Notes: a model not told the origin generated them from the letters alone. A stretch of 64,000 bases of DNA from a virus (IMGVR_UViG_3300018493_000089:1-64000), one strand, 5' to 3'. Counted from the first letter of the stretch, positions 1 to 64,000 are shown. Numbers and translations are program-made.

Positions 1-1663
1 AAAAGATTCTGAATATCCAGTCTCAATGATTAACATGAAAGAACTCGATGCTCTGATGTATGTTAAATTAGATATCCTTGGTCTTGATAACATCGGTGTA
101 ATTAATGAAACATGTAGAATTCTTGGAATTGATCGTTTAAACCCAGATAATACTGACCTGAATGACGAAAATGTTTGGAAAAGTATCAGGGAAGATACGA
201 CGCTCATTTTTCAATGGGAATCAGAGTCAGCACAATCTTATTTAAAAAGATTTATGTCTGATAAAACAATTCAAAAAGTAAAGAAACGAAATGAAGATTT
301 TTCCTATATCAAATGGTTTTCATTTGGTAATGGTCTACTGAGACCTGCGTGTGCCAGCTACAGAGATTCCGTTGCGAGTGGTGAGTTTTATCAGAATGGT
401 TTAAAAGAGCTCGATGATTTTCTTGCCCCAACTATGGGACATGTAACTATGCAGGAAGATATTATGCAATTTCTTGTAAGATTTTGTGAATACACTCAAG
501 CAGAATCCGATACAGTACGTCGAGGTATTGCAAAAAAATATGGTACTGAAAAGTTTCTACCTGAAATTGAAGAGCGATTTACGAGTCATGCGACAGACGC
601 ATATGAATTAAAAACTGATGAATGTTCTGAAATTATCAAGCCGTTTTTGCAGGTAATTTTAGATGCATCAAAATATTCTTTTTCTTGGAATCACTCTGAT
701 GCATATAGCTGTGTAGGATATATTTGTGGATATTTAAGATATTATTATCCATTAGAATTTATTACTGCAGCGATGAATGTATTTAGATCAAAGGTAGAAA
801 AAATCGGGAATATCGTTAAATATTCAAAAAAATCAAATGTTGAATTAATGCCTATTCGATTCAGATATTCAAAATCAGATTATATGTTTGATAAAGATAA
901 CAACACAATTTATAAAGGCGTATTTTCTGTAAAAAGTGTAAACGAACAAGTATCTGATGATTTATATGCTCTTCGTGATATGAAATTTGATAACTTTATG
1001 GAATTAATTACATATTGCAAAATGAATTTTCCCATTAAATTTAATCAGATTGAGGCATTAATTAAACTTGAGTATTTTAAAGAGTTTGGAGAAATTCCAT
1101 ATCTTTTAACATGTTTAAATGTTTTTAAAGTATACCACAAAAGATCTACATTAAAAAAAGAAGAAGTTCGGGATCTTGGTATCTCTTATGATGAAATCAA
1201 AAAGTTTTGCGGAAAAGAAACAGCGAAACAGTATTCACAAGTTGATATGAGTTGTTTTATGAATTTGGTTGTCCAAAAGCAATATACACACAGAGAAGTG
1301 ACCATCGGTGAGATTTTATCTTATCAAGATAAATATCTTGGATATATTGATTTTGCTGATTCCAAATATTCCAAATTCGTTCTTATCGAGAAAGTTGATA
1401 CAAAATTTTCCCCTAAATTAACTGCGTATACATTATCTAAAGGTAAGAGGATTCCTTTAAAAATCAGTAAAACACAATTTAGAAAAAACCAGGTAAACGA
1501 GGGTGATGTTGTTCAGATTCTGAATTGGGAAAAGAATGTAAGACGAGTAAAAGATAGTAATGGAGAATGGTCTGCTATTCCGAATGAGTATGACTGGTGG
1601 CTTACAAACTACCGGATTGTTGATAACATCAAAAAATATGATTCAAAAGAAGAGGAGGTGTAA
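1..1663 (+). CDS. dnaE: DNA polymerase III alpha subunit (DnaE-type), C-terminal portion; 5' end lies outside the window
   Basis: The frame is open from position 2. Motifs KLDILGLDN and GHVTMQEDIMQ...ESDTVRRGIAKK match the Pol III alpha finger region (FLGL...; RRAMGKK-like). Confidence 0.65.
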   Translation, partial: KDSEYPVSMINMKELDALMYVKLDILGLDNIGVINETCRILGIDRLNPDNTDLNDENVWKSIREDTTLIFQWESESAQSYLKRFMSDKTIQKVKKRNEDFSYIKWFSFGNGLLRPACASYRDSVASGEFYQNGLKELDDFLAPTMGHVTMQEDIMQFLVRFCEYTQAESDTVRRGIAKKYGTEKFLPEIEERFTSHATDAYELKTDECSEIIKPFLQVILDASKYSFSWNHSDAYSCVGYICGYLRYYYPLEFITAAMNVFRSKVEKIGNIVKYSKKSNVELMPIRFRYSKSDYMFDKDNNTIYKGVFSVKSVNEQVSDDLYALRDMKFDNFMELITYCKMNFPIKFNQIEALIKLEYFKEFGEIPYLLTCLNVFKVYHKRSTLKKEEVRDLGISYDEIKKFCGKETAKQYSQVDMSCFMNLVVQKQYTHREVTIGEILSYQDKYLGYIDFADSKYSKFVLIEKVDTKFSPKLTAYTLSKGKRIPLKISKTQFRKNQVNEGDVVQILNWEKNVRRVKDSNGEWSAIPNEYDWWLTNYRIVDNIKKYDSKEEEV

Positions 1664-2364
1664 TGGTGAATAAATACGTGATCACAGATGGTATTAGATA
1701 TATTGCAAAAAATAAAGCTGGTTCCTATGTTCCTGAACATGATGCAAGCAAAGCTTTAATTCTTTCTAAAGGTGATGCAGAAAAGATTTATTATAATAAT
1801 TTAGCAAAACCCCTGAGAAAAGTTTTTAGATTGTCAAAAGACGCAGTTCCAACAATAAAATCTTCAGAAAGTACAAAAATTGAAGATACAGCGATTGAAG
1901 ACAAAAAGGTTATCGAATGTAAGCCAGATATAAAAACAACAGATGCAATCATTAAGCAGGATGCGAGTAAAAAAGAAATAAAATACACCAAGCATTATGA
2001 TACAAAATGCGGGCTTGATGATGAATTAACAACACAGATTGTTCAGGTAGTAGAGATATTTAAGAGTGCTGCAACAAAAAAAGCTGATCTACAATCAAAA
2101 TTAGATAAAGTAGAAAAAGAAATTGTTGATATCAACCATTACATTGAATTCAAATCTTTGAATGCATGTGATGGATATAATGCCTACAGAATGTTGCGGG
2201 ACAGATTAACAAAACGAAGAAAATTAAAAAATGAATTAAAGGTTGCAGAAATTCTTGCAAAAGGAATTTTCACAACTTCCGATATTACAGATATTGAGAA
2301 AGTTATTAGTTCTTTCGATAAAAATCAATATCGTCCTAGAGTTCTCAGTGATTTATTTGAATAA
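1663..2364 (+). CDS. hypothetical Lys-rich protein
   Basis: ORF of 233 aa. RBS AGGAGG precedes an ATG that overlaps the upstream stop (TAATGG). Confidence 0.5.
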   Translation: MVNKYVITDGIRYIAKNKAGSYVPEHDASKALILSKGDAEKIYYNNLAKPLRKVFRLSKDAVPTIKSSESTKIEDTAIEDKKVIECKPDIKTTDAIIKQDASKKEIKYTKHYDTKCGLDDELTTQIVQVVEIFKSAATKKADLQSKLDKVEKEIVDINHYIEFKSLNACDGYNAYRMLRDRLTKRRKLKNELKVAEILAKGIFTTSDITDIEKVISSFDKNQYRPRVLSDLFE

Positions 2365-2375
2365 GGAGGATTATC

Positions 2376-2930
2376 ATGAGGGAAGTTTATAAAGTTAAAA
2401 AAGGTGACATTGTTCGACTGGTAAAAGCAAATACATTTGATTATGTGGAACATCCTTATATTGCACATTTTATCAATAAAAATTTTGAAGTCGTTGATGT
2501 AAATAAATATAGAATTACTGTGCTAAGAGATAACACAAAAATCGAATGTTATGCCGAATATTTTTATGATTATTTTAAAGTAGTAAAACCTGCAAAAGTA
2601 AAAGAAGAAACCGAAACAAATAAAAAGCAAACCAAAGTATCCAACGAGAAACCCGTTGAAAAGAAAACAGAAAATAAAAAATGGACTGATTGGACAACAA
2701 TTAAAATTTTCGGTGAGGATTATGCATATAAAACTGATGGTAAAACAGTTATTCTGCGTAATGGTGGTTGTAAGGGTGTAAGCAAATGCCATGATGAGGA
2801 TGAATTTAATTTAACAAAAGGTCTTGAAATTGCATTTAATAGGCTGGTAGCTATGAGAACAGAAAAAGCCATTAATGATGCAAGGGCGGATCTTGATAAA
2901 AAAGTAAAAGTAAAGAAGAGAACTGTATGA
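2376..2930 (+). CDS. hypothetical protein
   Basis: ORF of 184 aa with RBS AAGGAGG upstream. Confidence 0.5.
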   Translation: MREVYKVKKGDIVRLVKANTFDYVEHPYIAHFINKNFEVVDVNKYRITVLRDNTKIECYAEYFYDYFKVVKPAKVKEETETNKKQTKVSNEKPVEKKTENKKWTDWTTIKIFGEDYAYKTDGKTVILRNGGCKGVSKCHDEDEFNLTKGLEIAFNRLVAMRTEKAINDARADLDKKVKVKKRTV

Positions 2931-3184
2931 GAAAAAACTTTACATGCTTAAATTGTTTTTCAGAATTTGATGATTGGGCGGAAGTCGTCGAGTCTCATGG
3001 CTTCGATACTCCGCCATATGAAACACAATAGGTTTGCCCATAGTGTCACGATAATAATATTGTTACAGCTGTATATTGTGATTTATGCTTACAGCCTATT
3101 CATGGCAAATACATTGTCACAGTTGATGGTGATACAATTTGTGACAACTGTTTTGTAAAAAGGGATGTGGAAGATCTAATATGA
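2927..3184 (+). CDS. small zinc-ribbon protein (four Cys pairs) with 2 in-frame TAG codons
   Basis: ATG overlaps the upstream TGA. Cys pairs are CLNC, CP*C, CDLC and CDNC. The frame stays open through two TAGs to a TGA that overlaps the next ATG (ATGA). Confidence 0.45.
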
Positions 3185-3756
3185 AAAATACATTGGTTGT
3201 AAATTTAGTTGGTGGACAAGGTTCTGGGAAATCTACAATGATGGCTCATTTATTTGCATAGTTAAAATGGAATAATATTGACTGTGAAATGTGCAGCGAA
3301 TTTGCAAAGGAGCTTGTTTGGGAAAATCGACAAGAAACATTTAAAGATGAGCTTTATATCTTTGCAAAACAGAATCATAGATTATTTAGATGTAACGGAA
3401 AAGTAGATGTAATTATCACCGATAGACCTTTAATCATGTCTATTGCGTATAACCGGTACTATGGAGACCAAACGGATTATTTTTGGAATGCAGCATACGA
3501 AAGTATTGTTTATGAAACATTTAACAAATAGAAAAACCTCAACATTTTTTTGAATAGAGTAAAACCTTTTAATCCAAATGGAAGAAACGAAAATGAAGAG
3601 GATGCTAAAAAATTTGATGAATATTTTAAAGCCTCTCTTGAAGACCTTCGGCTTCCGTACCATGAATTTGATGGTGATTCCAACAGCGTTGAGGAAATAG
3701 GCGAGATGATTATTGGGTTAATAAAGAGAGGTGAAACAAATGATTCAGAACATTAA
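3181..3756 (+). CDS. P-loop deoxynucleoside / nucleotide kinase-like protein (2 in-frame TAG)
   Basis: Walker A GGQGSGKST and a dNK-like DRPL segment. Two TAGs are bridged by continuous conserved sequence. Confidence 0.55.
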
Positions 3757-3883
3757 TTCATTAGAAAATAATGCTAAGTACATTTATATTGGCAACAATA
3801 AATTTGTGAAAATCTAGTTTGATCGACAAATGGCTGAAAAACTCGCAAATGGCATTAAGGAGATTAAAGTTAATGCCGGATAA
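3740..3883 (+). CDS. small hypothetical ORF (1 in-frame TAG), overlaps kinase 3' end
   Basis: ATG at 3740 and 47 codons, but no strong RBS. Confidence 0.2.
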
Positions 3884-3895: not shown

Positions 3896-4372
3896 ATGAA
3901 TAAAAAAATTATTTATTGTTTTATAGCCTTTACATTTGTATTAACTTATACAGTATATGGTTGGTCTAAAAGCAATAAAGAAAACCTAGAAGAAATAGAT
4001 AGGTTAAGTGCTATGGTGGCGATTCAGCAAGAAAAAATTGATGAGTTGGAAAAAGAATTAAATATCACAACAGAAAAAAAGCCACAGAAAAAACATTTAG
4101 GTAAGTTTGAATTATCTTTTTATTCTAAGGAGCAGTTTCCAAATTCTCCGACTGCAACAGGTGTAATGCCAGTTGTTGGAAGAACAATTGCTGTTGATCC
4201 ATCTGTGATTCCATAGGGGACAGCAGTTGAAATTGATGGATTTGGTATTAGATATGCCGAAGATACTGGCGGGGCGATTAAAGGCAATAAAATTGATGTA
4301 TTTGTACAGACAACTGCAGAGGCTCGTCAGCTTGGCAGAAAATTTAATGTTGATGTATGGACAGTTGAATAA
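3896..4372 (+). CDS. 3D-domain (MltA/YocH-like) cell-wall-binding protein with N-terminal TM and coiled coil; 1 in-frame TAG
   Basis: RBS GGGG, TM helix IIYCFIAFTFVL, and the 3D motif AVDPSVIP*GTAVEIDGFG...EDTGGAIKGNKIDVF continuing after TAG at 4214. Confidence 0.6.
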
Positions 4373-4392: not shown

Positions 4393-5121
4393 ATGGGAAA
4401 GGTTTAGATTCATCCATTTACAACAAAAAAACCAATCACAATGATTGGATATATGGCTGGTGTGTGTTATGGAACAGATGTATCTGACGATGAAAAGAAT
4501 TACAAAAGAGGTATTGATTGTCTAAAATCGCAGCATGGCAGAACATGGGAATTTCCAACAGTATAGATGACGATTGAAGGGTACTCTGCAAGAGTTATGA
4601 GAGAAATTTATACTCATATTGGTGGATCTCCTTCTCGTCTGCAAGCAAGTACAAGATATATTAATTACTCTGATTTTGACTATTTTACCCCTCCTTCTAT
4701 TGAAGCTAATCCAGTAGCAAAAATTATTTATGATTCAACAATTATGAATAATATTATGGCTGGATTAAACGAACTAGAAGAAATGGGTATCCCTAAAGAA
4801 GATTCTGCTAATGCACTACCTCTTGGTATGGAATCTGTTATGGTCGGCAAATATAATTTTAGAACGCTGGCGGATATGTCACATCAAAGAAAATGTGTAA
4901 GAGCGTACCATGAATTCAGAGGATGGTTTAATGATTTAGAAAATTCTTTATCTGAATATTCTGAAGAGTGGGCATATCTTGTAAAAGAACATTTTATGCC
5001 TAAATGTGAACATCTGTTACATTGTCCAGAAAGATTTTCTTGTGGTAAATATCCTCCTAAAAATGTTGTTATGGAACTGATTGCACAGTGGAAAAAACAA
5101 CAGGAGGCAAAATCAGAATGA
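4393..5121 (+). CDS. thyX: flavin-dependent thymidylate synthase ThyX (2 in-frame TAG)
   Basis: ThyX motifs are HGRTWEFPTV*MTIEG, SARVMREIYTHIGG, SxRY (ASTRYINYS) and ALPLGMESVMV...NFRTL. TAGs lie at 4405 and 4564. Start ATG is at 4393. Confidence 0.75.
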
Positions 5122-5639
5122 AAAAATCATTAATTTTACTTGTCGGAAAATCTGGTTCCGGTAAAACGACAATCGCAGAATAGCTTGAAAAGAATTATGG
5201 ACTAACAATGCTTGAATCATATACAACAAGGCAACCCAGGTACGAGGGTGAAAGAGGACATATTTTTGTTACAAAAGAGGAATTTGAAAAAATGCCTAAC
5301 AAAGTGGCGCACACATTTTTTGATGGAAATGATTATTGGGCAACACAAGAACAATGTGATGAATCAGATGTCTATGTGATCGATCCTGATGGCATCAAAA
5401 CATTTAAAAGAATTTATAATAGCCCAAGACCATACAAAATTGTTTATTTAAAAATAAGTCCGATTGTTAGATTTTGGCGAATGACAAAACGTGGTGATGG
5501 CGTAATGAAATCAATTAGACGTATTATGCATGACCATAAGAAATTTGGAAAATTTGAAAATGAGTTTGGCGTAAAAATTATTAAAAGAGACCCTGTTTGG
5601 AGCATTGCCAAACAAATTCATGAAATGAGGTCATTATGA
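5118..5639 (+). CDS. guanylate kinase-like nucleoside monophosphate kinase (1 in-frame TAG)
   Basis: P-loop GKSGSGKTT and guanylate-kinase motif SYTTRQPRYEGERGHIFVTKEEF. TAG at 5181. Confidence 0.6.
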
Positions 5640-6091
5640 TGAAATATTCTACAGTTGTGTAGATTTCACATCCATATGGCGGATTAAAGGAAAACGAGGA
5701 TATTGTGGCTGAGTTAATTATTGAACTCAGTCGCAAATTCCCGGAGTATTTATTTATCTCGCCAATCCACGCTTTTTCTTTCACATACAAAACAGAAAAG
5801 AAATATCAAGACGGTCTTGATAAATGTTTATGGTTGTTAGATCAGTGTGATGAAATGTGGGTTTTTGGCAAATATAGAGAAAGCATTGGATGTATGGCTG
5901 AAATCGAATATTGTAATGAGCATCATATTTATTATCAAGCAATCAATGACAATTGTTTAAAAATCATGGCAGAACCAAGAAAGTGCTGTGATTGTGGATT
6001 GATGGAAATAGATGAGCAATATGCAATTTGCAATAAAAGTTTTGTAAGTCAGATTTATGAAAAGGTTTGTGGTAAACATGGACAAGAATAA
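5636..6091 (+). CDS. nucleoside 2-deoxyribosyltransferase-fold (DUF4406-like) protein (1 in-frame TAG)
   Basis: SHPYGG...FISPIHAF...CDEMWVFG pattern typical of the NDT-like fold. The frame is open across the TAG at 5660. Confidence 0.45.
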
Positions 6092-6228
6092 AAAATTATT
6101 GCTTGAGTTGATTTGTGATAGACAGATTGCATTATTATTACAAGACAGTACAAATTATGAATCTGCAAAATATAAGCAATTAGAGAAACTGAAAGTATAT
6201 GTCAAAGATATTAAGGAGGGTGTTGCTA

Positions 6229-8469
6229 TTGAAGGTAATTAAAAGAAACGGTACAGAAATGTAGTTTGATTCAAATAAGATTAAAATAGCGATTTTAAAA
6301 GCATTTGTTGATGTAGATGGTGAAGAAAGCCAGTATGCAAAAGACAAGGCGAGAGATATTGCTAATTATATCGCATCTTTAAATAAAACAATGTCTGTAG
6401 AAGAAATCCAAAATATCGTTGAAGAAAAACTGATGGCTAGCAATAGAAAAGATGTAGCCAGAGCATATGTTCGATACAGATAGATGAGAGATATGGCAAG
6501 ATCCCAGTACGATGGTTTTATGCAAGCCATTAGGGAAAAGGTTGAAGCTTCAAATGTTCAAAATCAAAACGCCAATGTAGATGAACATTCTTTTGGTGGC
6601 AGAACCGGCGAGGCAACAGACACAATGATGAAAAAGTATGCTCTTGACTATTGTGTGTCAAAAATGGCTAGAGACAACCATCTGAATAATATTATTTACA
6701 TTCATGATCTGAATTCTTATGCCGTAGGCATGCATAACTGCCTGTCAGTACCTTTAGATGATTTGCTGAAAAATGGGTTTAACACAAGACAGACTGATGT
6801 ACGTCCTGCAAATTCTGTTAATACAGCATTTCAGCTTGTAGCAGTGTTATTCCAGTTGCAATCACTAATGCAGTTTGGCGGCGTGTCCGCTACCCATATT
6901 GACCATACAATGGTTCCTTATGTGAGAAAGAGTTTTTATAAACATCTAATGGATGGTTTTAAGTATATTGAGGGCGTAGCAGAGCCTAGAAAATATATGT
7001 ATCAAGAAAACGCTGATGAATTTTGGACTCAATACACTGATATTGATGACAAGGATTTAAAAGCAGCGCATCCTAAAGCATACCAATACGCAATGGATAT
7101 GACGACAAAAGAGACATATCAGGCAGTTGAAGGTATGTAGCATAACCTCAATACACTGCAGAGTAGATCTGGTAATCAGCTTCCATTTAGTTCTGTGAAT
7201 TACGGCACGTGTACTCTACCAGAAGGCAGAATGGTAACAAAAGCGTTGTTAGAAGTATCAATCAATGGTATCGGCAAACTACATAGAACGTCTGTGTTCC
7301 CTTGTGGTATTTTCCAGTGTATGAAAGGCGTAAATAGAAAACCTGGCGATCCTAACTACGATTTGTTCCAATTGGCATTAAAATCTACAGCACAGAGACT
7401 GTATCCCAATTATGCCAATGTGGATTGGAGTAATAACGCAGGATACGATATTAATGACCCTAGAACATATTTTAGTACAATGGGTTGTCGTACAGCCAAC
7501 CTGTTCGACATTAATGGCTTAGGTCAGCTTAAAGATGGTAGAGGCAACATCTGTCCTGTAACAATCATTATGCCTACATTGGCTATGATGGCAAAAGAAC
7601 TGTACGAAGACCAGACTTACGATACACATGCTAATATTGTAGATATTTTCTTATACATTCTCGACCAAAAAATTCATGAGGCAAAAGATATGCTTATTGA
7701 ACGATTTGAGTGGATTTGTAAACAGAATCCAAAATCTGCAAAATTCATGTATGAAAATAATCTAATGGCTGGTTATGTTCCAGAAGAAGGAATTAGAAGC
7801 GCTTTAAAACATGGCACCCTAGCTTTAGGTCAGTTAGGTCTTGCGGAAACACTGCAGATTCTAATTGGTTGTGACCATACAACAAAAGAAGGTATGGATT
7901 TGGCAAAACAGATTGAGCAGTTATTCAAAGATAGATGTGCTGAGTTCAAACAAGAATATCAACTGAATTTTGGTGTTTATTATTCTCCAGCAGAAAATCT
8001 TTGTCATACAGCAATGAGAAAATTCCAAGAACAATATGGCGTGATTGAAAAAGTATCTGATAAAGATTATTTTACAAACTCTATGCATATTCCTGTATGG
8101 CATAAAATGACACCATTTGAAAAGATTGATTTAGAAGCGCAGTTAACAGGATACTCTAGTGCTGGATGTATTACATATGTAGAACTTGAATCTTCAGTAA
8201 AACATAACATCGAGGCACTTGAAACACTTGTTAATTATGCAATGGATCAGGATATTCCTTATTTTGCAATTAATGTTCCCAATGATACATGTTTAGATTG
8301 TGGTTATTGCGATGAAATTAATGATGTTTGCCCCATGTGCGGAAGCAAAAGAATTCAGCGTTTACGTAGAGTAACTGGTTATTTAACAAATGATTACAAA
8401 ACAGCATTTAATTATGGCAAACAACAAGAAGTTGAAATGAGAGAAAAGCATAGTGGGGTATCCGTATGA
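6229..8469 (+). CDS. nrdD: anaerobic ribonucleoside-triphosphate reductase NrdD with N-terminal ATP-cone (3 in-frame TAG; TTG start)
   Basis: SD AGGAGGG sits 8 nt before TTG. ATP-cone VIKRNGTEM*FDSNKI and NrdD motifs NTLQSRSGNQLPFSS, GIGKLHRTSVFPCGIF. The C-terminal Zn and glycyl-radical region reads CLDCGYC...CPMCGS...RVTGYL. TAGs lie at 6262, 6481 and 7138. Confidence 0.85.
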
Positions 8470-9011
8470 GAATTATAGATATTACAACATGCAGTGTTGC
8501 TGATGGTTTAGGGTTCCGTTTGGTAATTTGGTGTGCTGGATGTGAACATCATTGTGAAGGATGTCATAATCCTGAATCATGGGATTGTAACGCTGGACAC
8601 AAACTAACAGATAAAGACCTTGATACAATATTTGATCAACTAGAATTTGATTATATTAAAGGAATCACATTTAGCGGAGGAGATCCTTTGCATCCACAAA
8701 ATGTAGAGCAAGTTTATAGACTCTGCAGAGTGATTAAAGAAAATTATCCGGATAAAACAATTTGGATATATACAGGATATAAATTTGAGAACATTTATTA
8801 CGAACCTGGTTGTTTTATGACTCAAGATTGTAATCCAGCAAGGGATCTTAGAAACGAAGTGCTGAAATATATCGATGTGCTTGTTGATGGCGAATTCGTT
8901 CACGACAGAAGAAATGTAACAATTGCTTTTCGAGGTAGCGATAATCAAAGACTAATTGATGTTCCAAAATCATTAAAGGCGTGGAAAGCAGTTATTTATG
9001 AGCAGGAGTAA
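8466..9011 (+). CDS. nrdG: anaerobic RNR activating protein NrdG (radical SAM)
   Basis: Radical-SAM cluster motif CEHHCEGC, overlapping nrdD stop; no TAG. Confidence 0.85.
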   Translation: MRIIDITTCSVADGLGFRLVIWCAGCEHHCEGCHNPESWDCNAGHKLTDKDLDTIFDQLEFDYIKGITFSGGDPLHPQNVEQVYRLCRVIKENYPDKTIWIYTGYKFENIYYEPGCFMTQDCNPARDLRNEVLKYIDVLVDGEFVHDRRNVTIAFRGSDNQRLIDVPKSLKAWKAVIYEQE

Positions 9012-9022
9012 CATCCTGCTCT
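8999..9022 (+). terminator. GC-rich hairpin after nrdG (AGCAGGA-gtaaca-TCCTGCT); weak terminator or attenuator
   Basis: 7-bp stem with a 6-nt loop, but no clean T-tract. Confidence 0.25.
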
Positions 9023-9042
9023 CTATTAAAAGAGGTAGTCTT

Positions 9043-9660
9043 ATGGGAAAAGAATTGAGTTTAAGAAATTAGAATCTTGTTATCGGAGTGATGCTCCTTT
9101 GGGGTTTTATTGTAAATGTATTTACATGTGCATTTGGTGGAGAATATTTTGCTTCAATTAGTCCAGTGAAATTATTAATAGGGTATTTTATTACAGCCAT
9201 TATTGGTATTTGTATGAGCGCATTTTCAGAAAATCCGTTTGTAAGTTTCATTGGTTATAACTTGGTTGTATTACCTATCGGCGCTGTATTAAGTGTTACA
9301 TTACAAGATGTTGCAAAACTAACAATCCTTATGGCGTTTGGTGCAACTGCGTGCATGACATGCTTAATGATGATAGCAGCAACATTGAAACCGCAATTGT
9401 TTTTATCAATGGGTAGAATTCTGTTTATGAGTTTGCTTTTTGTAATTATAATTGAGCTTCTAATGGTCGTGTTTTGCGGTGTATCTCCAACAATAATTGA
9501 CTTTGTTGTGATTGCTTTGTTCTGTTTATATGTAGGATATGATTGGGCAAAGGCGCAAGAGATGCCAAAAACATTGGATAATGCGGTAGATAGTGTTGTT
9601 GGACTGTATTTGGATATTGTAAATATTTTTATCAGACTCATTGATATTATGGAAGATTAA
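9043..9660 (+). CDS. Bax-inhibitor-1 / YccA-family multi-pass membrane protein (1 in-frame TAG near N-terminus)
   Basis: RBS AGAGG precedes ATG 9043. Seven predicted TM segments and the family C-terminal signature GLYLDIVNIFIRLIDIM. TAG at 9070. Confidence 0.5.
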
Positions 9661-9672: not shown

Positions 9673-9918
9673 ATGATAAACAAAAAAACTTGGGAAGAAT
9701 TTAGAGATTCTGGAATGTTATGGTAGATCAATATGATTCTGCATATCTTTGGATGGTCAATTGTAGTTGAATTAGAAGATAAAAAAATAATAAATGCATA
9801 TCCGGCAAGGGTAAAATTTAGGGGATTTTCCGAAGAGAATAATACAGAAGGATATAGAAAAGTAAGCAAATATATGTATGAAAACATTAATGAGATTTTA
9901 GAAGAAGCAGAAAACTAA
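9673..9918 (+). CDS. hypothetical Trp-rich small protein (1 in-frame TAG)
   Basis: RBS AAGGAG sits 8 nt before ATG, and the frame stays open through the TAG at 9724. Confidence 0.4.
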
Positions 9919-12308: not shown

Positions 12309-12506
12309 ATGGTTACGTTTTTAGGATTCATGGCTATCGCTAGTGGCATTGTTTTGAGGGCATAGCTCACAATCGATCATCATTGTTCTGACAGAGACAA
12401 ACTAGAACTTAAAGACATTGCAGGTTATATGGTAATCGCAGGTGTCGCTATCATCTTAATTAATACATGGATTGCAAAGCCAGTGATAATTTGGTTGGGA
12501 GGTTAA
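12309..12506 (+). CDS. small two-TM membrane protein (1 in-frame TAG)
   Basis: RBS GGGGTGA. Two hydrophobic helices. Confidence 0.35.
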
Positions 12507-49520: not shown

Positions 49521-49535
49521 CCAATTATCTCCTTT

Positions 49536-50787: not shown

Positions 50788-50819
50788 AAAAAAAAGAACA
50801 CTGTCATTCAGTGCTCTTC
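50788..50819 (-). terminator. terminator (AGAGCACTG-aatga-CAGTGTTCT + T8)
   Basis: 9-bp stem. Confidence 0.5.
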
Positions 50820-51478: not shown

Positions 51479-51555
51479 ATTATTTACTTCATAATCCTAC
51501 CCAAAAAACATTGAGAGCTCATCAAACTCTCTGACAGATGTCTCTAATGATAAAT

Positions 51556-53216: not shown

Positions 53217-53530
53217 TAATCTCCCTCCTTGATTTTGTCAATCAGGGAATGAGAATCTAAAATTAATTTTCTATATTTTTTAAAATCACAATCTTTTTTA
53301 TTGGCTTCTTTTCGTGCTGTTTCTAATAAACTAATTAAAGTTACTAATTCTGGAGGATTGAATAATATATCATTCATCCCAGAAATTCTCCATAACAATG
53401 TCTCAAAATAATAATCTAATTGTGGATAATTTTCTTCTTTATATATTAATAACCAATGGATAGAATTGTGTAATGAGCGTTTTTGCTCTTTGATTTGATC
53501 ACTATTAAAAGTGCCATATAAATGTTCCAT
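53216..53530 (-). CDS. hypothetical protein
   Basis: ORF of 104 aa. Confidence 0.45.
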   Translation of the reverse strand: MEHLYGTFNSDQIKEQKRSLHNSIHWLLIYKEENYPQLDYYFETLLWRISGMNDILFNPPELVTLISLLETARKEANKKDCDFKKYRKLILDSHSLIDKIKEGD

Positions 53531-53994
53531 TATTCTTCACCATTAATCTAAGAATTAGCAATATATCCACGATCACGAATCATTTTTCTGAGCTCGACCT
53601 TGCAGTCTTTTAGTAAACTTTTAAGTTCGCTAAGATGCGCTGCCTGAGAATAAAATTTTTCTTCTTTACCACCGAACATTTGTAGCGTATGTAATACTGA
53701 TTTTACTTGTGGTTCTAACCACTGAATAACCATTCCGATGGCTAAAATGTTTGTAACATAATCAATATCACCATTTTTAAAAATTTCATTTTTTAGTTCG
53801 TATGTTAAAGTCAAAATTTCATCATCAAATGTTATTGAAGAAAAAATTTTAGAAATATAAGGTACTGCAACAGCAGAATGTAAATAGCCTTTCATCATTT
53901 CGTAAGCATCATTAGGATTCAATGATGCAAAGTTGTAATCTGTGATTTTAAGTAAAAATTTTGAGTAGATGTCATCATATAGAACGCTGTTCAC
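53530..53994 (-). CDS. hypothetical head-tail connector protein (GTG start; terminal TAG then TAA giving TAATG overlap)
   Basis: SD GGCGGTGA sits 7 nt before GTG. After the TAG at 53548, 5 codons run to TAA, which overlaps the next ATG. Confidence 0.4.
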
Positions 53995-54663: not shown

Positions 54664-55740
54664 TTAAGCTTCGATTTCCCATGTACCGAATTTCTTGCCG
54701 ATAACTGTAGCTACACCCAGTTTCTGCTGATATTCAGCTTCAATAGACATATCTCTATTTGTATCTTTATCAGTTACTTCACTCATCTGAGCATCGCCTT
54801 CATCGTACAGTTTGATGAATTTGTTATCGCCAACGGGCATAATCAGCAGTTTGCTATTATCAACCAGTTTTGTTGTTGTGTCATGAGGAGCGAATGCTTG
54901 GGGAATTTCAACCAGTCTTGTGCCTTCGAAATAACCCAGTCTACCTGTTGTATATCTTTCTTGTTTCATTTCATTAGAAACCCAATCAACTTCAGACATA
55001 CCATTCAGTTTAGCCAGAGCAGATTTTGTACCCATGATAACAACTTCTTCACCTGTAGCTGTCTGAACATCTTCAATCAGTGTGATGAATGTGTCTCTCA
55101 TAGAAGAATTCAGCTGACCTGTTTTAGCAAACTGAGATGTAGGCATTACTTTATCGCCAGCAGACATAACTGCTGCATATACCATATCGTTTACTTTTTT
55201 GTCAAATCCTTCATAGATTTTCTGAACAAAACCAGCCCAGTCAATTCTGCCAGCCATGAACAGTTCGTATTCAGCATAGATTTTTACACCATACCAGCTT
55301 GTTTTAACATTGAATGTTTCGCCTTCAGCCAGTTTCTGTCTAATCAGGTTGTGATGATTACCAGACAGTTCGGATACAGTCAGGATACATTCATTAGGTG
55401 CATAGAATTCGTTTGTATCGCCAGCAGCCATAGATTTCATTTCTACGAATTCGTTGAAGAAAGGATTTTCACCCCAACCGGACACCAGCAGATCTGTTAC
55501 TGTTTCTTCGATTACTTCGTAAACTGCAACTTTATTTTTTCTAATTGCTTTTCTCAGTTCTTTTCTTGTGCAACCTTCATCAACACCTAGAACCTGGAAC
55601 ATTACTTCTCTAATTTTAGCGTTTGTATCTTCTTTAGATTTTTCATAAATGCCTTGAGCAGCATCAAACATCAGGTTTTTAAAACCATTCTATTCAAATG
55701 CAACAAATACGTTGTTTGTGCTATCGTTTGTGAATCTCAT
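54664..55740 (-). CDS. major capsid protein (1 in-frame TAG at 55690)
   Basis: SD AGGAGG sits 9 nt before ATG 55740. High-expression codon bias, and a terminator downstream. Confidence 0.6.
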
Positions 55741-55770: not shown

Positions 55771-56238
55771 TCAACCGATTGTCAGTTTTTTGTTAGCAAC
55801 AGAAACTTTAGCGCCTTTTGCAACTTCGCCAGAGATTGCTTCTGCAGAAACTTCGAATCTATCATATTTCAGCAGTTCCATACATCTCATAATGTCACCC
55901 TGTGCATTGTAGAAATTGGATTCATGCTGGCACTGTGTTGTGTATTCTTCATAAATCATAGGAACCTGTGCTACTAACCAGCAATTTTCAGCAGATGCTA
56001 CGTCAATCAGCCAGTTACCATTTGCTGTTTTATCAATAATTGTACCAGCGAATGTACCAGCAGCAGCTTCAGCCTATACATCAGGTCTCAGATATTCGCC
56101 ACAACCAACGATGCAACCGTTGTCGATGTCTGCTGTAGCTTCGATGTTGCGGATGTGAGAACCGCCAATTGTAGACAGCAGTTCGCTTGTACCAACAACA
56201 GCGTGTTTGTTTTTAAAGTTTAAAAAATTTGTTGCCAT
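55771..56238 (-). CDS. head decoration / scaffold-like protein (1 in-frame TAG at 56074)
   Basis: SD AAGGAGG sits 8 nt before ATG 56238. Codon bias matches the MCP. Confidence 0.4.
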
Positions 56239-56259: not shown

Positions 56260-56282
56260 ATAAAAAAAGACCATGCGGTCTT
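56260..56282 (-). terminator. terminator (AAGACC-gcat-GGTCTT + T7)
   Basis: 6-bp stem and a T-tract. Confidence 0.45.
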
Positions 56283-57851
56283 AGTCAAATAAATTACCAT
56301 ATCTTTTATTTGTAGTAGTTTTAACAGAAAAATTAATTTTGTTAGTTTCTTTTTCTTTACTATGTGTGAATGCTGTGGGGTTTTCATATACATAGTTAGA
56401 GAAAATAACTTTTGCTTTTTCTTCAACTTCTGTTACAGAATATTTATCAATATCTTTTTTCAGACAATTAAATTCTTCGTTGTCAGCAAGAACAGAGAAT
56501 TTTTCATTACTAATAATAGCTTGTTTTTCACTTCTTGCAACTTCTAAGTCATAATTATCTTTAAATGCTTTGAGTTCGTTATATGTAGCCTTCATTAAAT
56601 CAAGAGCAACTTTTTCTTCTGCAGTAATAAATTCAGCAAATACTTCAATTTTATCGCCTTCAAAAGCGATGTTATCTCCATCAACCACATATCCCTGACG
56701 ATAATATTTCATACCATCTGTATAATCTTCGTAAATAAAATAAGAATCAAACACTTCTACAATCCAAACATTGTAATACTGTTGTTCATCAACACTTTCT
56801 CTTAAAATTGTATATAAACCAGCACGAATGTCGTCATGAGAAATTTCATAAGAGATTACTTTACTTTCAAAGTTTTCGGGTTCATCTTCGGGCTGAGGAT
56901 CAACTTCAGGCTGAGGGTCGACTTCAGGTTGTGGATCTGTTTCAGGTTCAGTTTCAGGAGCTGGCTCTGGTTCGCCTTCTTCAAAAGCATTCTCAAAAGC
57001 CTGTTCTAATTCTTCATCTGTCAGTCCTTCAATTTCAAAAGTAATATCTTGTTCTGTCTTATTGTATTTTTCCAGTAATTCTTGCAGTTTCAAGTTTTCA
57101 TATCCTCCTTTCTCAGTGTGCTTTCTAAAATCAGATAATAATGACTGGAATTCGGATAGAATACTCTTCAACTCATCATAGTCATTATTGTTTTCAAAAG
57201 TTTGCACAGTTGCTTTGGCTCCATCCATACCGGGTTTTACATGTGAACCTAGTAGAGTTACACCAAAGAAAGTAAATTCATCGATAGAGAGACGTTTATT
57301 TTTTGCATCAAAAGAAAATTTCTTGACATTTAATTCCACAGAAACATCAACAACACCACGTTTTTCTAAAATATCAGCAGCGTAGCTATATTCTCTAAAA
57401 ACTAAACCATCAACGAAAACATATTTTTTATCAGATTGTTCATCTTCTACCAATTCAATATTATTATCTTTTGGAATAATGCCGACAATTTTTTCTATGT
57501 ACTCGATACGTTCTTTGTCTGGATTCATTTTATCCTGAGCAATTACCATATCATGTCCATTAAAATCTAATGGTAAGTCGTCATTCCCATTTTGCACTTC
57601 AATTATAGATGCAAGGATAGGTTTCTCAGCAAAAGAGGGTAGGGCATTCGTCATAGATTCTTCAGAAATATAAGATCCATTCAAGTTTTCAAGCGTATGA
57701 CAAGCCTTAAATCTGCAGGGAAGATAATGTTCATCATATTCGCCTTCAATAGCTGAAAAAGAAGCTGGCACTGAAACTAAAATACCATTTTCTTCTTTTG
57801 CTTCGTAATTCTACACACTATTCTGAACACAATAATTGAACAGTTCGTGCA
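56281..57851 (-). CDS. putative prohead protease / scaffold fusion with acidic Pro-rich repeats (1 in-frame TAG at 57810)
   Basis: SD AAGAGG sits 7 nt before ATG 57851. PEPAPETEPETDPQPEVDPQPEVDPQP repeats and an HK97-protease-like FNGHD segment. Confidence 0.35.
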
Positions 57852-57908
57852 TAGGAATACCTCTTAAATTCATTACGCACATACACCTCCTTTCTAAAAT
57901 TGATGAGC

Positions 57909-59610: not shown

Positions 59611-61626
59611 TTATAGTCCAGAGAATAGAGAGCTGCGAGTCCCAGTTCTCATTGGTAATTTTTGTGCTAAACTAACATTTGGAGTTTCTTTTTTCTTATT
59701 TCTAATTTGGGAAACTCGTTTTTCACTCAAATACCAACCAAGCATTGCTAATGTGTAAGCACGGTCATCATGCAACGTGCCTTCACTAGCGCCGGTATCA
59801 GCATCTTTATGAGCAGGAAGTTTAAATGAGTCAGAGCCGCTATCACGTTTTACACGACAAATATTTACAATTTCTTCTTTCATCGCATCAATTTGTGATA
59901 AAGCAACTTCTTCATCAGGTGATAATTTATACATAATTGTTTGAGCTGTATCTAATTTGTCTAGCTCATCTGCTAGACGTTCTTCATATTCTTTTGTTGG
60001 AAGATCTAATTTATCTAATTCAGCTCTAATTCTTTTTTCGTTTTCTTTAATTGTTTTTGTGTCAATCTGTAGCATATTTAAATAACCACGATTATCATAC
60101 TTTTCTGGGAATGTAATATAATCTCCTTCGACCATTTTAATTAATGCCTCAAACATTTGAGATTTATATTTTGCTGGTTCGAGCATTTTAATTTTATCAA
60201 CAGCGTTGGGGAATTTTCTTATGTAGTCTTTAGAAAATTCTTTGTCAATAAATCCACGCTGTTTTTTCCCGGATTTATCCATCCAGTCCTCTAATAAAAA
60301 GTCTGGAATACTTTTACCGCCACCGCCGGCACCAGCATCAATCATAATACATTCAATATTACCATATAAATCGGCATCTCCATTGTAATCTAAAATCAAT
60401 TGTTTTAATTCGCTAATTTGTTGTGGAGTTGTTTTGGGTGTTTTTTTTCTAGTACTTAAATCCATAAAATTAACACAATTAACAATATCCATCATCCAAC
60501 CCTTCTCATCGTCATAGCGTAATTCACCAACGCTAACAACAGAATTGTCAGTAGATCTTGCAGGGTCATATGCTAATACAAAAGTTCTTTTTCCTGTATC
60601 ATTACTCATTACAGGAGGGCGAACATAAGAGTTTCGTGTAATTAATGCACGTTTAATAATTTGTCCGGAACCACCATCTTCCGTGAACACATTATAATAT
60701 TCTCTTAATGCCTTTTCTTGATTAACACGCATTTCTGCATCAACAGTTTCCTGACGCAGTAGTGAAGCGGGATAAATTTTTCCGCCTTTTGTGCCTCTAA
60801 TTACAACATCGCAGTTAATATCTGCAACAAAATAACGAGGATCGCCTAAAAGCATTTTCTTGGAAAAATCCCTATATTTAGAATAAAACGGTGTATCAAT
60901 AGAAGATGCAGATGAAATCTAGACAAGTTGATTTGGAATTTCTCTGGGTAGAGTTCTAATATCCATATCTCCACCCATTTTAAAATCTTTATTTACGATG
61001 GTAAATGCACCATATACATTCATCATTTCTTCCGACAAGAAGCCACATTCATCAAATACAACCATATTGCCACGAGCACCTCTTTTGCGGTCAATATTTG
61101 AATTCAATGTCTTAGTAAAAGAACCATTATAAAGACTGTAAAAATGCCCAGATGGATTATGGACAAATCCTTCACCCATGCCATTTCTAATCTCTAATTC
61201 TTGTTTAAATACACCGGTTAACCCAGTCATAGATTCAATATTTCTATTTGCAATATTTTCTAGTGTTTTAAAAGTTGTGATAGCCTGATCGCCAGAGCCA
61301 GAGGCAATATATGCCCAATAGTTATTAAATAGCATACCTTTTGCCATTAACATTAAGTCTGTAATTGAAGATTTACCAAAACCACGACTACACACCCATA
61401 AGGAGTAGGGGGTGTTCCAAGTTTTCATAATAGCATACGCCTGTGCATCAAGTAATTCTGCGCCGATTACATCTTTGATAAATTTAATCGGGTTTTTCTG
61501 ATACTAAGCACGAATTTCAGCAAGTTTTTGAAAACTCTCCAATTTTCTTGTGGACATAGAGTATTCAGTTGGTTTTACAAAAATCTCATAATTCTTGGGG
61601 ATAAATAATTTATTTTCATCATTCAT
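59611..61626 (-). CDS. terminase large subunit, 671 aa, assembled from two track ORFs plus an uncalled N-terminus via 2 in-frame TAG
   Basis: N-terminus MNDENKLFIPKNYEIF..., Walker A CSRGFGKSS, Walker B MVVFDECGF, and nuclease domain VLAYDPARSTDNSV. TAGs at 61504 and 60919 are in frame. Confidence 0.8.
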
Positions 61627-62965
61627 TTAAATTACCCCCGTCTTCATCATTATGTTCTGGCATACTATAATCCATTGGAATATATTTATCTTCTTGTGAT
61701 CCATTACTATACAAAATAGTATCTTTTGATAAATTGGCTTTATCAAGATAACCAATTTCTTTTAAATAATCTTTTAAATCCATATTTTCACGCAACAAGA
61801 TTCTTGCTTGTTCTTCACGCTCTTCAGCTAATTCAATGTATTTCTGTAAAAGTTCACGTTGTTCCGCAAGCATTTCAGAATAATCATTTTCATCAAGTTT
61901 AATTTTGTTTAAAATCGACTGATTGCTGATATCTGCGACTTGACGCATACCACGACATGTGCCAATATCAAACCCATTAACTTCCGCTGCACGAAGATTC
62001 ATATCTTTTAATTTTCTTGTTCTACCAGTGAATGTATCGTCGCCACGCTTAACATTCTTATTGTTTTTTAAAGAAATACAGCTTTCTGTAGCTAATTTTT
62101 GAATACTTGCTGTAATCTTTGATTTTGTATCTTCAAGAGCCCTGATGGTAGATACATTTCTATCTAAATTTCTAGTATCGTTAATCAATACAGAAATAAT
62201 ATCGTTAATTTTTTCAATATGTAAAAACCCTTTTACAATTTCAATGATGGAGCTAATTCTCATCATATCTGCACTTGTATCTTCATCTAAATCACAATAT
62301 CCAACAAACTGAGAATATAAAAATGGCTTATCTTTTTCCTGTTCGGTTTCAAATGGATCATATCCAAGTAACCTTAAAGTATCAGCTTTATTTTTTTCAT
62401 ATTCCTCAAGCAATGTTTTGTTTTTTAATAAAGTTGCATCCGTTGGAATTAGTGCTATTTCAGGCTTAAATACATCGCCATCACGCCAGCGATAGCCAGC
62501 ATATTGTTTCATAGCAATATTTTTTGTGTATGCAGTAAAAACATTGTTTTTAATTTTTTCATGTGTATTATTTGCAGCCTCAAGCAAACTAGATTCCCAA
62601 ACACTTGTTAAAAATGGTTTATCAACATATTCAAGATATGCTTTAACAGAATCAACTGTTGGAGCAGAGGCTACACCAGTATCAGGATCGACAGGCATAG
62701 CAATTTGATAACAACATTTTTTGCAAATTCTGCTTACGCTTGTTTTTGATAGTGGGTCTGTACATGCGAAAAATTCAGTGTGCGGATATACACCACCGCA
62801 TAAATAACATGTATGATAATCTCTACCTATCTTTAATTTTCTAAACAACTCAAGTTTCTATTGCTGTGGAATTGTTTCAATTTCTTTTACCAAATCATCA
62901 ATTTGGTATTTTTGATCCCGAAGTGGTTGTTTTACTTCTTTTGTTTTTTTCGCTGTCTTAGGCAA
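61619..62965 (-). CDS. zinc-ribbon + coiled-coil protein upstream of terL (terminase small subunit / packaging candidate); TTG start, 1 in-frame TAG
   Basis: SD GGAGGTGG precedes TTG. CYLCGG...CKKCC. TAG at 62858. Confidence 0.4.
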
Positions 62966-62984
62966 CAAACCACCTCCGTTTCAA

Positions 62985-64000
62985 TTACAATAATATTTTT
63001 GTTGACTTATTAGTACAAATAACTTTTGTTGTTTTACAGCGATTTCCGAGTTCCGCTTCCAAATCATCCTTGAATTGTAATTTATTGTGATCGGAATGAA
63101 CAAGATATACTCGTTCAGCGTTAATATCGGCATAATAATTAATTAAATCTTCTCTTTGCATATGTGAAGAGAAAGATGTTAAATTACAAATTTGAGCTCT
63201 ATTTTTAAAAGGTTTGCCATTAATAGTGATTGTTTTTTGTGTATCACCATTTTTAATTTTATATGCTAAACTACCTTCTGTAGAATAACCACAAAAAAGA
63301 ATACAATCATTCTCTACAGGTAAAATACTTTCTGTCCATTTTACGCTTCGCCCAGCAGTTAACATACCAGAACTAGATAAAATGCATTTTGCACTCTTAT
63401 CCATGACTGCAGCCTTGCTCTCTTCGGGATCTGTAATAAAAATAATATTTTTCCAATTCATCATGGTGTCAAATTTCTCTTTTGCGTCACCGGACAACAA
63501 ATTAGAATAATGTTCTAATAATCTAATAGCAAGTGGGCTATCTATAACTATTGGAATATCAAAATTTTTATCATTCCCGAATATAGTAAAAATATTCCAA
63601 AGCATATATGGCATACGGTCAAGGCTGAATGTTGGAATCAAAACACGCTGATTTCTATCTATGCAATATTGTTCAATAACACTTTTAATTTTTTGCATAT
63701 CTAAATCATATGTTTTCTTTGTCATATCTCTGCCTTTCGCTGAATATGTGCATTCACCAATAACAATATTAGCTTTTTTGACAGGCTCAAATTCTTCAAC
63801 AAATACATGTTGTTTTTGTGTGATAATATTACCCAAATCAGAGGTGAATAAAATTGTTCTTGGATGAACACCTCGTAAAATTACCTCTGTTTGTTGTGAC
63901 AAGAAAATATGTCCAGCAGGAGTGTATCTGACAGACACATCTTCTGTTATCTCAAAAATTTGATGTGATTCATATTCCTCAATATATTTTAAAGCCATAT
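62985..64000 (-). CDS. MBL-fold / beta-CASP-like hydrolase (possibly 5'-partial at window edge)
   Basis: C-terminal VYLVHSDHN. The ATG at 63998 is 2 nt from the window end. Confidence 0.45.
   Translation of the reverse strand, partial: MALKYIEEYESHQIFEITEDVSVRYTPAGHIFLSQQTEVILRGVHPRTILFTSDLGNIITQKQHVFVEEFEPVKKANIVIGECTYSAKGRDMTKKTYDLDMQKIKSVIEQYCIDRNQRVLIPTFSLDRMPYMLWNIFTIFGNDKNFDIPIVIDSPLAIRLLEHYSNLLSGDAKEKFDTMMNWKNIIFITDPEESKAAVMDKSAKCILSSSGMLTAGRSVKWTESILPVENDCILFCGYSTEGSLAYKIKNGDTQKTITINGKPFKNRAQICNLTSFSSHMQREDLINYYADINAERVYLVHSDHNKLQFKDDLEAELGNRCKTTKVICTNKSTKILL

Follow-up and report, generated by a model that had tools for sequence, protein, structure and literature searches.

Phages that read the amber codon TAG as sense are known from the crAss-like, Lak and Garnet/Topaz clades, the 'genetic code 15' phages (Borges et al. 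preprint 10.1101/2021.08.26.457843; Peters et al. PMC9523058; Cook et al. PMC11210395), and from the Phassvirus group with the 136 kb phage phAss-1 (Babkin et al. 2023, PMC10607447). In this study we analysed the viral DNA IMGVR_UViG_3300018493_000089:1-64000 (the window, meaning the whole stretch of 64,000 nucleotides), in which in-frame TAG codons interrupt otherwise intact genes. We consider it highly probable that the window is part of a SPbeta-like phage of ~129 kb from gut or rumen Clostridia and that UAG is translated as tyrosine in this phage. TAG reassignment in phages is known, and the Tyr variant of it seems to be unreported: searches of full-text literature, a body that mostly leaves out subscription journals, gave no account of TAG=Tyr for phages or bacteria, so that an earlier description is possible.

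Like the code-15 phages, the window phage has in-frame TAGs in genes for virion structure, lysis and, in part, DNA metabolism, a candidate phage-borne tRNA(CUA), TAG-free early or integrase genes and a host that presumably uses the standard code. Unlike them, it appears by sequence comparison to read TAG as Tyr and not as Gln, with a putative suppressor derived from tRNA-Tyr and carrying a long variable arm, and its TAG density is low (0.24% of codons), so that coding density under code 11 is hardly lowered. With the Phassvirus group, to which we liken it by size and gene content, it shares a length of ~130 kb, an origin in gut Bacillota, many tRNA genes and TAGs in ~40 open reading frames (ORFs), including those for TerL, tape measure, portal and fibres. 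In phAss-1, however, TAGs align with Gln, and tRNAscan-SE assigns the Sup-CTA tRNAs to Gln; in the wider clade there are members with TAGs in which no Sup-CTA gene is recognised (PMC10607447). Capture of a stop codon by tyrosine is also seen in eukaryotic and organellar codes (code 29 of Mesodinium, UAA/UAG=Tyr; code 14 of flatworm mitochondria, UAA=Tyr), but those are whole-genome codes of cells or organelles in another domain of life, whereas here a virus would override the code of its host. Tyrosine is a one-step mutational neighbour of UAR.

The window sequence recurs at 99.9-100% identity on more than 20 metagenome contigs, the longest of ~129.7 kb, and therefore represents a real, recurrent phage of ~129 kb. 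We examined ~91 kb of this genome, namely the window and the flanks reached via window proteins (loci L004, L009, L130 and L138). The window has a G+C content of 33% and is densely coding, on the plus strand to ~16.2 kb and on the minus strand from there. It encodes ThyX, a guanylate-kinase-like kinase, NrdD/NrdG, DNA ligase, FolD and dUTPase, as well as fibres, a tape-measure protein, RusA, portal, large terminase and a large serine recombinase (Pfam domains Resolvase, Recombinase and Zn_ribbon_recom), because of which the phage is probably temperate. With Bacillus phage SPbeta it shares such a recombinase, a length of ~130 kb and, among its virion genes, the Pfam families PF27364 YonB, PF27269 YonG_N, PF27387 YonJ_CC, PF27173 YomU, PF27211 YomV and PF27256 YomW. 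Unlike the window phage, SPbeta uses the standard code, and similarity of the window to cultured phages is neither at the nucleotide level nor close at the protein level: megablast of window 43000-64000 against GenBank phages gave no match, and TerL is merely 21-26% identical to its counterparts in cultured phages by tblastn (22-26% in cultured SPbeta-like phages). Two uncultured relatives serve for most comparisons below. One uses the standard code (L001, a 148 kb contig, NrdD 82% identical); the other is the closest relative, IMGVR_UViG_3300045988_185107 (loci L026, L133 and L137, TerL 79%), which is itself recoded.

That TAG is a sense codon in the window phage seems to us virtually certain. 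A self-trained codon model in which TAA and TGA alone terminate gives 73 genes for the window, and 35 of them contain a total of 49 in-frame TAGs; about half of the genes are thus intact only with TAG read through, in agreement with the initial annotation, which had counted at least 35 interrupted genes on both strands. It had also given TAA and TGA as the genuine gene ends, and indeed 48 genes end in TAA, 25 in TGA and none in TAG, nor does any gene need read-through of TGA. The stop-to-stop ORFs underlying this gene model make up 96.7% of the window. When TAG is read as sense, coding density rises from at most 89.8% (code 11) to 95.6% and 91 fragments become 73 genes; the gain is only modest because TAG is sparse (4.6% of TAT+TAC+TAG).

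The case is made gene by gene as well. At least 20 codons separate 31 TAGs, in 22 genes, from either gene end, with a positive coding score on both sides, and ~10 further TAGs are backed by homology. ORFs that end in TAG extend in frame for at least 40 codons in 18 of 29 cases, against 15 of 87 for TAA/TGA (Fisher p = 1e-5). The two sides of a TAG align to single homologues: one Pfam NRDD match (residues 124-751) crosses TAG 7138, the ATP-cone match crosses TAG 6262 and stops at 6481, the Thy1 match crosses TAG 4564, the RusA match crosses two TAGs and the PHROG terminase match crosses 60921. Three TAGs that had been located beforehand have correct coordinates: 7138-7140 (plus strand) in NrdD, directly ahead of HNLNTLQSRSGNQ (context AVEGM[TAG]HNLNTLQSR), 21795-21797 (minus strand), directly ahead of HELRFGKPAADVYIDDK, and 61504-61506 (minus strand) in TerL, where the P-loop (VCSRGFGKS) follows ~36 codons downstream. 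Four TAGs stand 4-9 codons ahead of a TAA; at two of these (47732 and 53550) relatives have Tyr codons, followed by a conserved tail.

It is exceedingly improbable that the TAGs arose in a decaying prophage by nonsense mutation or through errors of assembly, or that they separate independent genes. Fibre and tape-measure segments could in principle be distinct genes, and code 11 still gives a coding density of ~90%, but only TAG, never TAA or TGA, interrupts genes, more than 20 assemblies have the identical TAGs, six TAGs are common to the window and a relative at 78% nucleotide identity, and single-domain matches run across TAGs. Pseudogenes and assembly errors are refuted by these shared TAGs, by the restriction of the interruptions to TAG and by domain continuity. 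At individual sites, a few N-terminal TAGs may precede the true start; behind TAG 52122 comes an ATG that overlaps the upstream gene in an ATGA, and the start probably lies downstream of this TAG.

Three attributions were less secure. All large fibre genes had been said to carry TAG, but 29448-30671, 35458-36621 and the 1839-amino-acid ORF at 36929-42448 are free of it. TAG 19373 does lie inside the holin match, but the identity as a holin is just a sub-threshold Pfam match; similarly, TAG 55692 is present in the protein named major capsid protein, but this is a YonB-family protein and a candidate capsid. The TAG-bearing and TAG-free features of the window are, with coordinates and strand:

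26-2930, plus: C-terminal part of PolIII-alpha and two small genes; end of a TAG-free block that runs ~20 kb further upstream.
2927-3184, plus: small Cys-rich ORF; TAG 3029 and 3041, coding score positive on both sides; in L001, 3041 is Y and 3029 is R.
3181-3756, plus: P-loop kinase-like ORF; TAG 3259 and 3529.
3740-3883, plus: small ORF; TAG 3815.
3896-4372, plus: 3D-domain protein; TAG 4214, TAT in the non-recoded relatives L001 and L003.
4393-5121, plus: ThyX; TAG 4405 (ACC in L001) and 4564 (CAC, His, in L001); the Thy1 match covers residues 11-182.
5118-5639, plus: guanylate-kinase-like nucleoside monophosphate kinase; TAG 5181 (CAT in L001), crossed by Guanylate_kin at 4-168 (29.8 bits).
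5636-6091, plus: DUF7768-like ORF; TAG 5660, TAT in L001, L002 and L003.
6199-8469, plus: NrdD, anaerobic ribonucleotide reductase; TAG 6262, 6481 and 7138; ATP-cone at 12-98.
8998-9660, plus: Bax1-I-like membrane protein; TAG 9070, near the N-terminus and uncertain.
9673-9918, plus: small ORF; TAG 9724, TTT (Phe) in L001.
11222-11929, plus: metallophosphatase-like ORF; TAG 11273, TAT in L001.
12309-12506, plus: small ORF; TAG 12363, weak.
15825-15959, plus: small ORF; TAG 15837 and 15912, weak.
16228-17811, minus: large serine recombinase; 22 Tyr codons and no TAG.
19215-19541, minus: holin-like ORF; TAG 19373, crossed by Phage_holin_6_1 at 11-95 (E = 5.6e-4, below cut-off).
19913-20491, minus: ORF; TAG 20002.
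21381-22028, minus: HAD phosphatase-cupin fusion; TAG 21797.
23473-24168, minus: ORF; TAG 23763 and 23616.
24688-25587, minus: ORF; TAG 24720, 9 codons ahead of TAA, candidate read-through.
26839-28065, minus: glycine-rich fibre protein; TAG 27759 and 27495.
28078-29415, minus: fibre-like ORF; TAG 29202 and 28230.
29448-30671: putative fibre gene, TAG-free.
30723-34562, minus: 1279-amino-acid fibre with internal repeats; TAG 33608 and 32417.
34562-35461, minus: tail or baseplate ORF; TAG 35350.
35458-36621: putative fibre gene, TAG-free.
36637-36888, minus: small ORF; TAG 36657, 5 codons ahead of TAA.
36929-42448, minus: 1839-amino-acid ORF; 80 Tyr codons and no TAG against 3.7 expected; no Pfam or PHROG match.
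43515-47648, minus: tape-measure protein, C-terminal part matching tape-measure PHROGs; TAG 45293, coding scores of 416 and 383 on its two sides.
47715-48173, minus: ORF; TAG 47732, 4 codons ahead of TAA; L137 has TAC and the same tail ...YNFLF.
48734-49324, minus: RusA, Pfam match at 24-140; TAG 49300 (common to L137), 49210 and 49039 (both TAT in L137).
49290-49580, minus: ORF; TAG 49436, common to L137.
50804-51559, minus: YomV-like ORF; TAG 51499, common to L026.
51556-52149, minus: YomW-like ORF; TAG 51690 (TAT in L137) and 52122.
53530-53994, minus: ORF; TAG 53550.
54664-55740, minus: YonB-family protein, candidate capsid (PF27364, phrog_4088); TAG 55692, common to L026.
55771-56238, minus: ORF; TAG 56076, TAT in L137; other residues in relatives are given below.
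56281-57882, minus: phrog_3313 protein; TAG 57813, TAT in L137.
59611-61626, minus: large terminase (TerL); TAG 61506 and 60921, the latter crossed by the phrog_2 match at 57-494; one TerL TAG has the context NQLV[TAG]ISSASSIDTPFYSK.
61619-62968, minus: YonG-like ORF; TAG 62860.

As to the amino acid, TAG very probably means Tyr, judging from protein alignments. Among 120 NrdD homologues (~75% identity), Y stands at TAG 7138 in 117 and at TAG 6481 in 97, while the column of 6262 is variable; the standard-code relative L001 has TAC, TAT and GAT at the three NrdD sites. Over ten window TAG sites, the codons of L001 are TAT/TAC five times, CAC/CAT twice, TTT, ACC and GAT once each, and CAA/CAG never. 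In 53 IMG/VR relatives found with TerL, TAG 60921 corresponds to Y in 49 and F in four, and TAG 61506 to F in 26, W in 17 and Y in five. All 15 relatives have Y at TAG 53550, and TAG 56076 faces Y or F (six and five relatives, respectively). An empirical-substitution likelihood over 22 sites puts Tyr first, followed by His (-12.2 ln units), Phe (-13.2), Trp (-21) and Gln (-31). The closest relative gives the same picture at the codon level: its TAT/TAC codons face window TAGs at 7 sites, both have TAG at 6 sites, and its own TAGs fall on window TAT/TAC in 12 of 14 sites (p = 2e-14, given 5% Tyr codons). Further cases come from single proteins. The HAD domain homologue PDB 9iqw_A has Y opposite TAG 21797 (GLKYHNL vs GVK[TAG]HEL), the repeats of the 1279-amino-acid fibre read STGSQYIDT, STGQQ[TAG]IDT, STGTQYINT and DGNQYINT with Y opposite TAG 32417, and in a GIY-YIG gene just past the window a TAG occupies the Y position of the YIG motif, at which a paralogue 800 bp off has TAT. 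In these alignments, both against relatives and at invariant Tyr positions, TAG is shown to act as a synonym of TAT and TAC.

Some columns speak against Tyr, as relatives (apart from those sharing the TAG) have E or D at 51499, mostly E at 55692 and mostly S or Q at 51690; those at 51499 and 55692 are read as ordinary substitutions at variable positions. The protein alignments speak against insertion of Leu or Ser.

The obvious alternative is standard code 15, in which TAG would be read as Gln by a Gln-type suppressor tRNA, as callers of the pyrodigal-gv type assume and as the initial annotation had offered as an example. This is the sole TAG reassignment described for phages in the literature examined, distant relatives of the window phage (L065 and L068) have TAGs mostly opposite window CAG/CAA, and a tRNA-Gln(UUG) gene adjoins the CUA cloverleaf described below. 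We nevertheless regard Gln as very unlikely, given its deficit of 31 ln units relative to Tyr: in the comparison with the closest relative, TAG exchanges with TAT/TAC at 19 sites and with CAA/CAG at none, several TAG columns are near-invariant Y, and the CUA tRNAs differ from tRNA-Gln in their long variable arm and A73. The few Q at the NrdD TAG columns include the public protein P0001, a 100%-identical copy of the window NrdD (6199-8469), which has Q at the TAG positions although two of them are Y in 97 and 117 of the 120 homologues, evidently because it was translated by a code-15 gene caller.

With Tyr as the favoured meaning of TAG, a matching decoder can be looked for. The initial annotation had proposed a search for a tRNA with CUA anticodon; a candidate was found, in the right flank and not in the window. 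The window holds no tRNA gene, nor do the 10 kb by which the left flank was extended. A tRNA cluster that includes a normal tRNA-Tyr(GUA) lies 2-8 kb past the right end of the window, and directly after its tRNA-Gln(UUG) we found a CUA cloverleaf at L130 590-673 (window-equivalent ~72,026-72,109, ~8.1 kb past the window end). Its 84 nt form five arms with the acceptor GGGUUAU/AUAACCC, a 3-bp D stem, the anticodon loop CUCUAAA and a long variable arm of 4 bp. The sequence does not differ between three assemblies, one of which matches the window at 100% over the overlap. The cloverleaf is homologous to the phage tRNA-Tyr(GUA) genes of relatives and has the features of a tRNA-Tyr body (long variable arm, G1-C72, A73, U35-A36-A37) with C34 in place of G34. 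At the same locus the sister strain L134 (TROVE protein 98% identical) has a canonical tRNA(CUA), whose anticodon stem GCAGA/UCUGU is that of the phage's own tRNA-Tyr(GUA). A third allele in L026, also with a canonical elbow, has the acceptor of the window allele and the variable and T arms of the tRNA-Tyr(GUA) from the relative L059. All three CUA tRNAs of the lineage combine the long variable arm with A73, and where the L130 cloverleaf departs from L026 and L134 in a stem, compensatory changes preserve the pairing. z-Scores from minimum free energy folding are uninformative for tRNAs. We ranked isotypes by anticodon-masked sequence profiles; the two canonical alleles (L134 and L026) score Tyr > Ser > Leu, and Ser is excluded because of A73.

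In body, loop CUCUAAA, A73 and long variable arm, the cloverleaf resembles E. coli supF (su3+, tyrT G34C). We infer that a phage tRNA-Tyr could likewise have become a CUA suppressor by a G34-to-C change, and that it would be charged with Tyr by the resident tyrosyl-tRNA synthetase of the host, since this enzyme reads mainly U35 and A73; once charged, it would compete with host release factor 1 (RF1) at UAG and beat it. Suppression by supF is best with a 3' purine. Unlike supF, the tRNA of the window phage occurs naturally in a phage, where it has become fixed along with dozens of sense TAGs, its charging with Tyr is proposed by analogy, and its T-loop in the window strain is not canonical.

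This last point is the first of several that count against the cloverleaf as decoder. The T-loop reads GGCAGUA instead of UUCGAAU, so that the elbow (UUCRANY plus D-loop GG) is not canonical, and the tRNA of the window strain may be impaired. Because of the aberrant T-loop, neither ARAGORN nor Rfam calls the L130 cloverleaf, and against the Tyr profile it scores only 4.4 bits. Leu could likewise be accepted by a type II tRNA with A73, and it is the protein alignments alone that exclude this amino acid; the remaining ~38 kb of the genome could hold another suppressor. On balance we find it fairly likely that the nearby cloverleaf is the working decoder in the window strain.

If it were not, Tyr could still be inserted by another reader: a second phage tRNA(CUA) in the other ~38 kb, a host suppressor or near-cognate reading by tRNA-Tyr(GUA). 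The non-canonical T-loop missed by tRNA finders would fit this, as would the normal tRNA-Tyr(GUA) of the phage and the fact that related TAG=Gln phages have two or three suppressor copies. Plant tRNA-Tyr(G-psi-A) is able to misread UAG. Such a reader is unlikely, however, as the stems of the cloverleaf are maintained by compensatory changes, third-position pairing of G34 with G would not be efficient enough for an essential gene with three TAGs, and no further CUA candidate appeared in the ~91 kb, where we ran ARAGORN on the window, L004, L130 and L138, a relaxed cloverleaf search on the window, L004 1-8400 and L130 1-8800, and a loop-motif listing on L138 1-10100 only. A scan of IMG/VR with the 5' half of the CUA tRNA matched L026's own contig alone.

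The label 'tRNA-Pyl', which ARAGORN puts on every CUA tRNA, is all that favours pyrrolysine. A pylT has a 3-nt variable loop and a small D-loop, unlike the CUA tRNAs here with their long variable arm and D-loop of normal size (9 nt); moreover, TAG aligns with Tyr, Phe and His and not with Lys, and no pylS or pylBCD synthesis genes occur in the gene tables of the ~91 kb examined. Pyrrolysine is thus as good as out of the question.

The tRNA cluster differs between strains. Two GIY-YIG homing-endonuclease genes (L130 ~690-1350 and ~1530-2200), with three in-frame TAGs each, sit between the tRNA genes of the window strain and are missing from sister strain L134, and the tRNA(CUA) allele beside them is wholly different between the two strains. 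As the neighbouring alleles differ completely, this suggests allele replacement or co-conversion tied to the endonuclease insertions. The phage and its relatives also have a tRNA-Ile(UAU) (L009 4315-4390; L026 4460-4555), whose L026 copy, at 96 nt and with an extra long arm, is unusual for tRNA-Ile.

TAG is not spread over the whole genome, as had been claimed at first. A contiguous block of at least 23 kb with ~31 genes, those for replication and RNA repair among them (L138 1-20705, i.e. 20.7 kb upstream, plus window 1-2930) contains ~372 Tyr codons and no TAG against ~17 expected. Its genes include an MrpR-like recombinase, an aminotransferase, PTH2, RtcB, a NadR-like protein, PnuC, SSAP, DnaB, primase, a PDDEXK nuclease and PolIII-alpha. 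TAGs start with the gene that follows immediately (2927) and recur, on both strands, in genes for nucleotide metabolism, lysis and the virion, with the serine recombinase and the 1839-amino-acid ORF likewise free of them. It might be possible that the TAG-free block is translated first under the standard code of the host and that nucleotide-metabolism, virion and lysis genes would become fully translatable once the suppressor accumulates, TAG then serving as a timing device or a lysogeny safeguard, as has been proposed for TAG=Gln phages. In the model for those phages, early and lysogeny genes are readable under the host code, and the TAG distribution of the window phage agrees with it. By analogy, we hold the chances to be evenly balanced that the block reflects such a timing of expression or safeguard of lysogeny. 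A simple early/late switch is only partly supported, as TAG is found in 'middle' genes (NrdD and ThyX) as well as in late ones.

Within genes, 19 of the 49 TAGs lie in the first 20% of the gene, a figure partly inflated because start sites are uncertain. Either some starts have been annotated too far upstream, or early TAGs are favoured as termination there wastes little. The base after TAG is A in 25 of 49 cases against 32% for TAT/TAC, a bias that is weak (p = 0.03), which counts against our reading. Both the share of 4.6% among Tyr-family codons and the following A in 51% would fit TAT/TAC drifting to TAG in the presence of a suppressor of moderate efficiency.

Another reading is that TAG is still largely a stop, read through at low efficiency, and that the TAGs act mainly as attenuators of protein dosage. 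Sparse use and the frequent position in the first fifth of the gene would suit this, and neither a release-factor gene nor an inhibitor of RF1 turned up in the ~91 kb. But attenuation would imply a very low yield of the candidate capsid (YonB family), terminase, tape measure, NrdD and RusA (the last two with three TAGs each), TAG terminates no gene, and some of the N-terminal TAGs may merely precede the true start. We therefore rate attenuators as rather unlikely, though the least so among the alternatives to efficient reading of TAG as Tyr by the cloverleaf.

In the wider TerL family the codon seems to have taken a different course. L065 and L068 (TerL 39% identical) are TAG-rich, with TAGs mainly opposite window Gln codons, and the tRNA(CUA) of L065 (L065 6958-7045), with G73 and a variable region of 22 nt, resembles tRNA-Ser most. 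As both the aligned codons and the tRNA differ, TAG seems, from these sequences, to have been captured independently within the family; the Gln-like relatives may belong to the Phassvirus kind. Taken as a whole, we lean towards a scenario in which the lineage of the window phage and IMGVR_UViG_3300045988_185107 uses a natural TAG=Tyr code via a CUA suppressor derived from phage tRNA-Tyr, arisen in a family with standard-code and Gln-aligned members, the suppressor of the window strain perhaps having a non-canonical T-loop.

At present, only TAG=Gln and TGA=Trp are distinguished in phage stop recoding, and prodigal-gv, geNomad, Pharokka-gv and Mgcod hard-wire both. If the lineage code is indeed TAG=Tyr, current gene callers and public protein databases would write Q for Y in such phages; the public NrdD copy, with Q at two near-invariant Tyr positions, illustrates that the identity of the amino acid should not be assumed. 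Since sparse recoding barely lowers coding density, detectors based on density may miss such phages. A codon captured more than once, by different tRNAs, in one phage family would also provide a system for asking how a virus crosses to a new code, and natural Tyr-type amber suppressors from Clostridia phages, one with an odd T-loop, may be of interest to suppressor tRNA engineers.

Several searches beyond the TAG sites gave little. Scans of IMG/VR and metagenomes with the TROVE protein, in search of the rest of the phage genome, returned only relatives of at most 68% identity; no match was obtained in IMG/VR with the 1839-amino-acid ORF or the tape-measure C-terminus, in genome contigs with the beta-CASP protein (in search of a prophage or host) or in PDB with RusA. 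In L137, one ORF of 2700 codons matches both the 1839-amino-acid ORF (36929-42448) and the C-terminal half of the window tape-measure protein. The fibre gene at 30723-34562 (minus strand) has at least four copies of a repeat of ~190 amino acids, each with a terminal ...YYYN.G.G.F motif, and its neighbour at 26839-28065 ends in a glycine-rich C-terminal domain. A cluster at 19913-23471 (minus strand) with NeuB (sialic/nonulosonic acid synthase), the HAD phosphatase-cupin fusion and a radical-SAM/SPASM protein suggests a phage-encoded sugar modification.

Genes for translation and RNA repair flank the window. Right after the tRNA cluster, an ORF of 44 amino acids (L130 6614-6748, ~65,951-66,085 in window-equivalent coordinates, ~2 kb past the window end) matches Pfam ArfA with 28.1 bits against a threshold of 25.5 and carries the motif KNKKGKGSYKRKEKH, which we take to be close to that of E. 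coli ArfA. ArfA recruits RF2 to ribosomes stalled on non-stop mRNA, and the ArfA-like protein could relieve stalling where UAG stops are read through. To our knowledge ArfA is a proteobacterial factor and hence unexpected in a Clostridia phage. A Ro60/Rsr-like TROVE gene is followed by at least two sub-threshold matches to YrlA, a Y RNA-like family (L130 2458-4089 and L009 2516-2790, 4-7 kb past the window end), and a short motif, CTGATGCAGTT...GTTACTTCG, recurs in about five copies between the tRNA genes, which gives the impression of an Rsr/Y-RNA module carried by the phage. PTH2, RtcB, the NadR-like protein and a PnuC-type nicotinamide mononucleotide transporter are encoded in the TAG-free block (L138 5132-6809 and 7583-9410, 10-15 kb upstream of the window), and ClpP adjoins the tRNA cluster. 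Together with the ArfA-like and Rsr-like proteins, these form a tool kit for translation and RNA repair.

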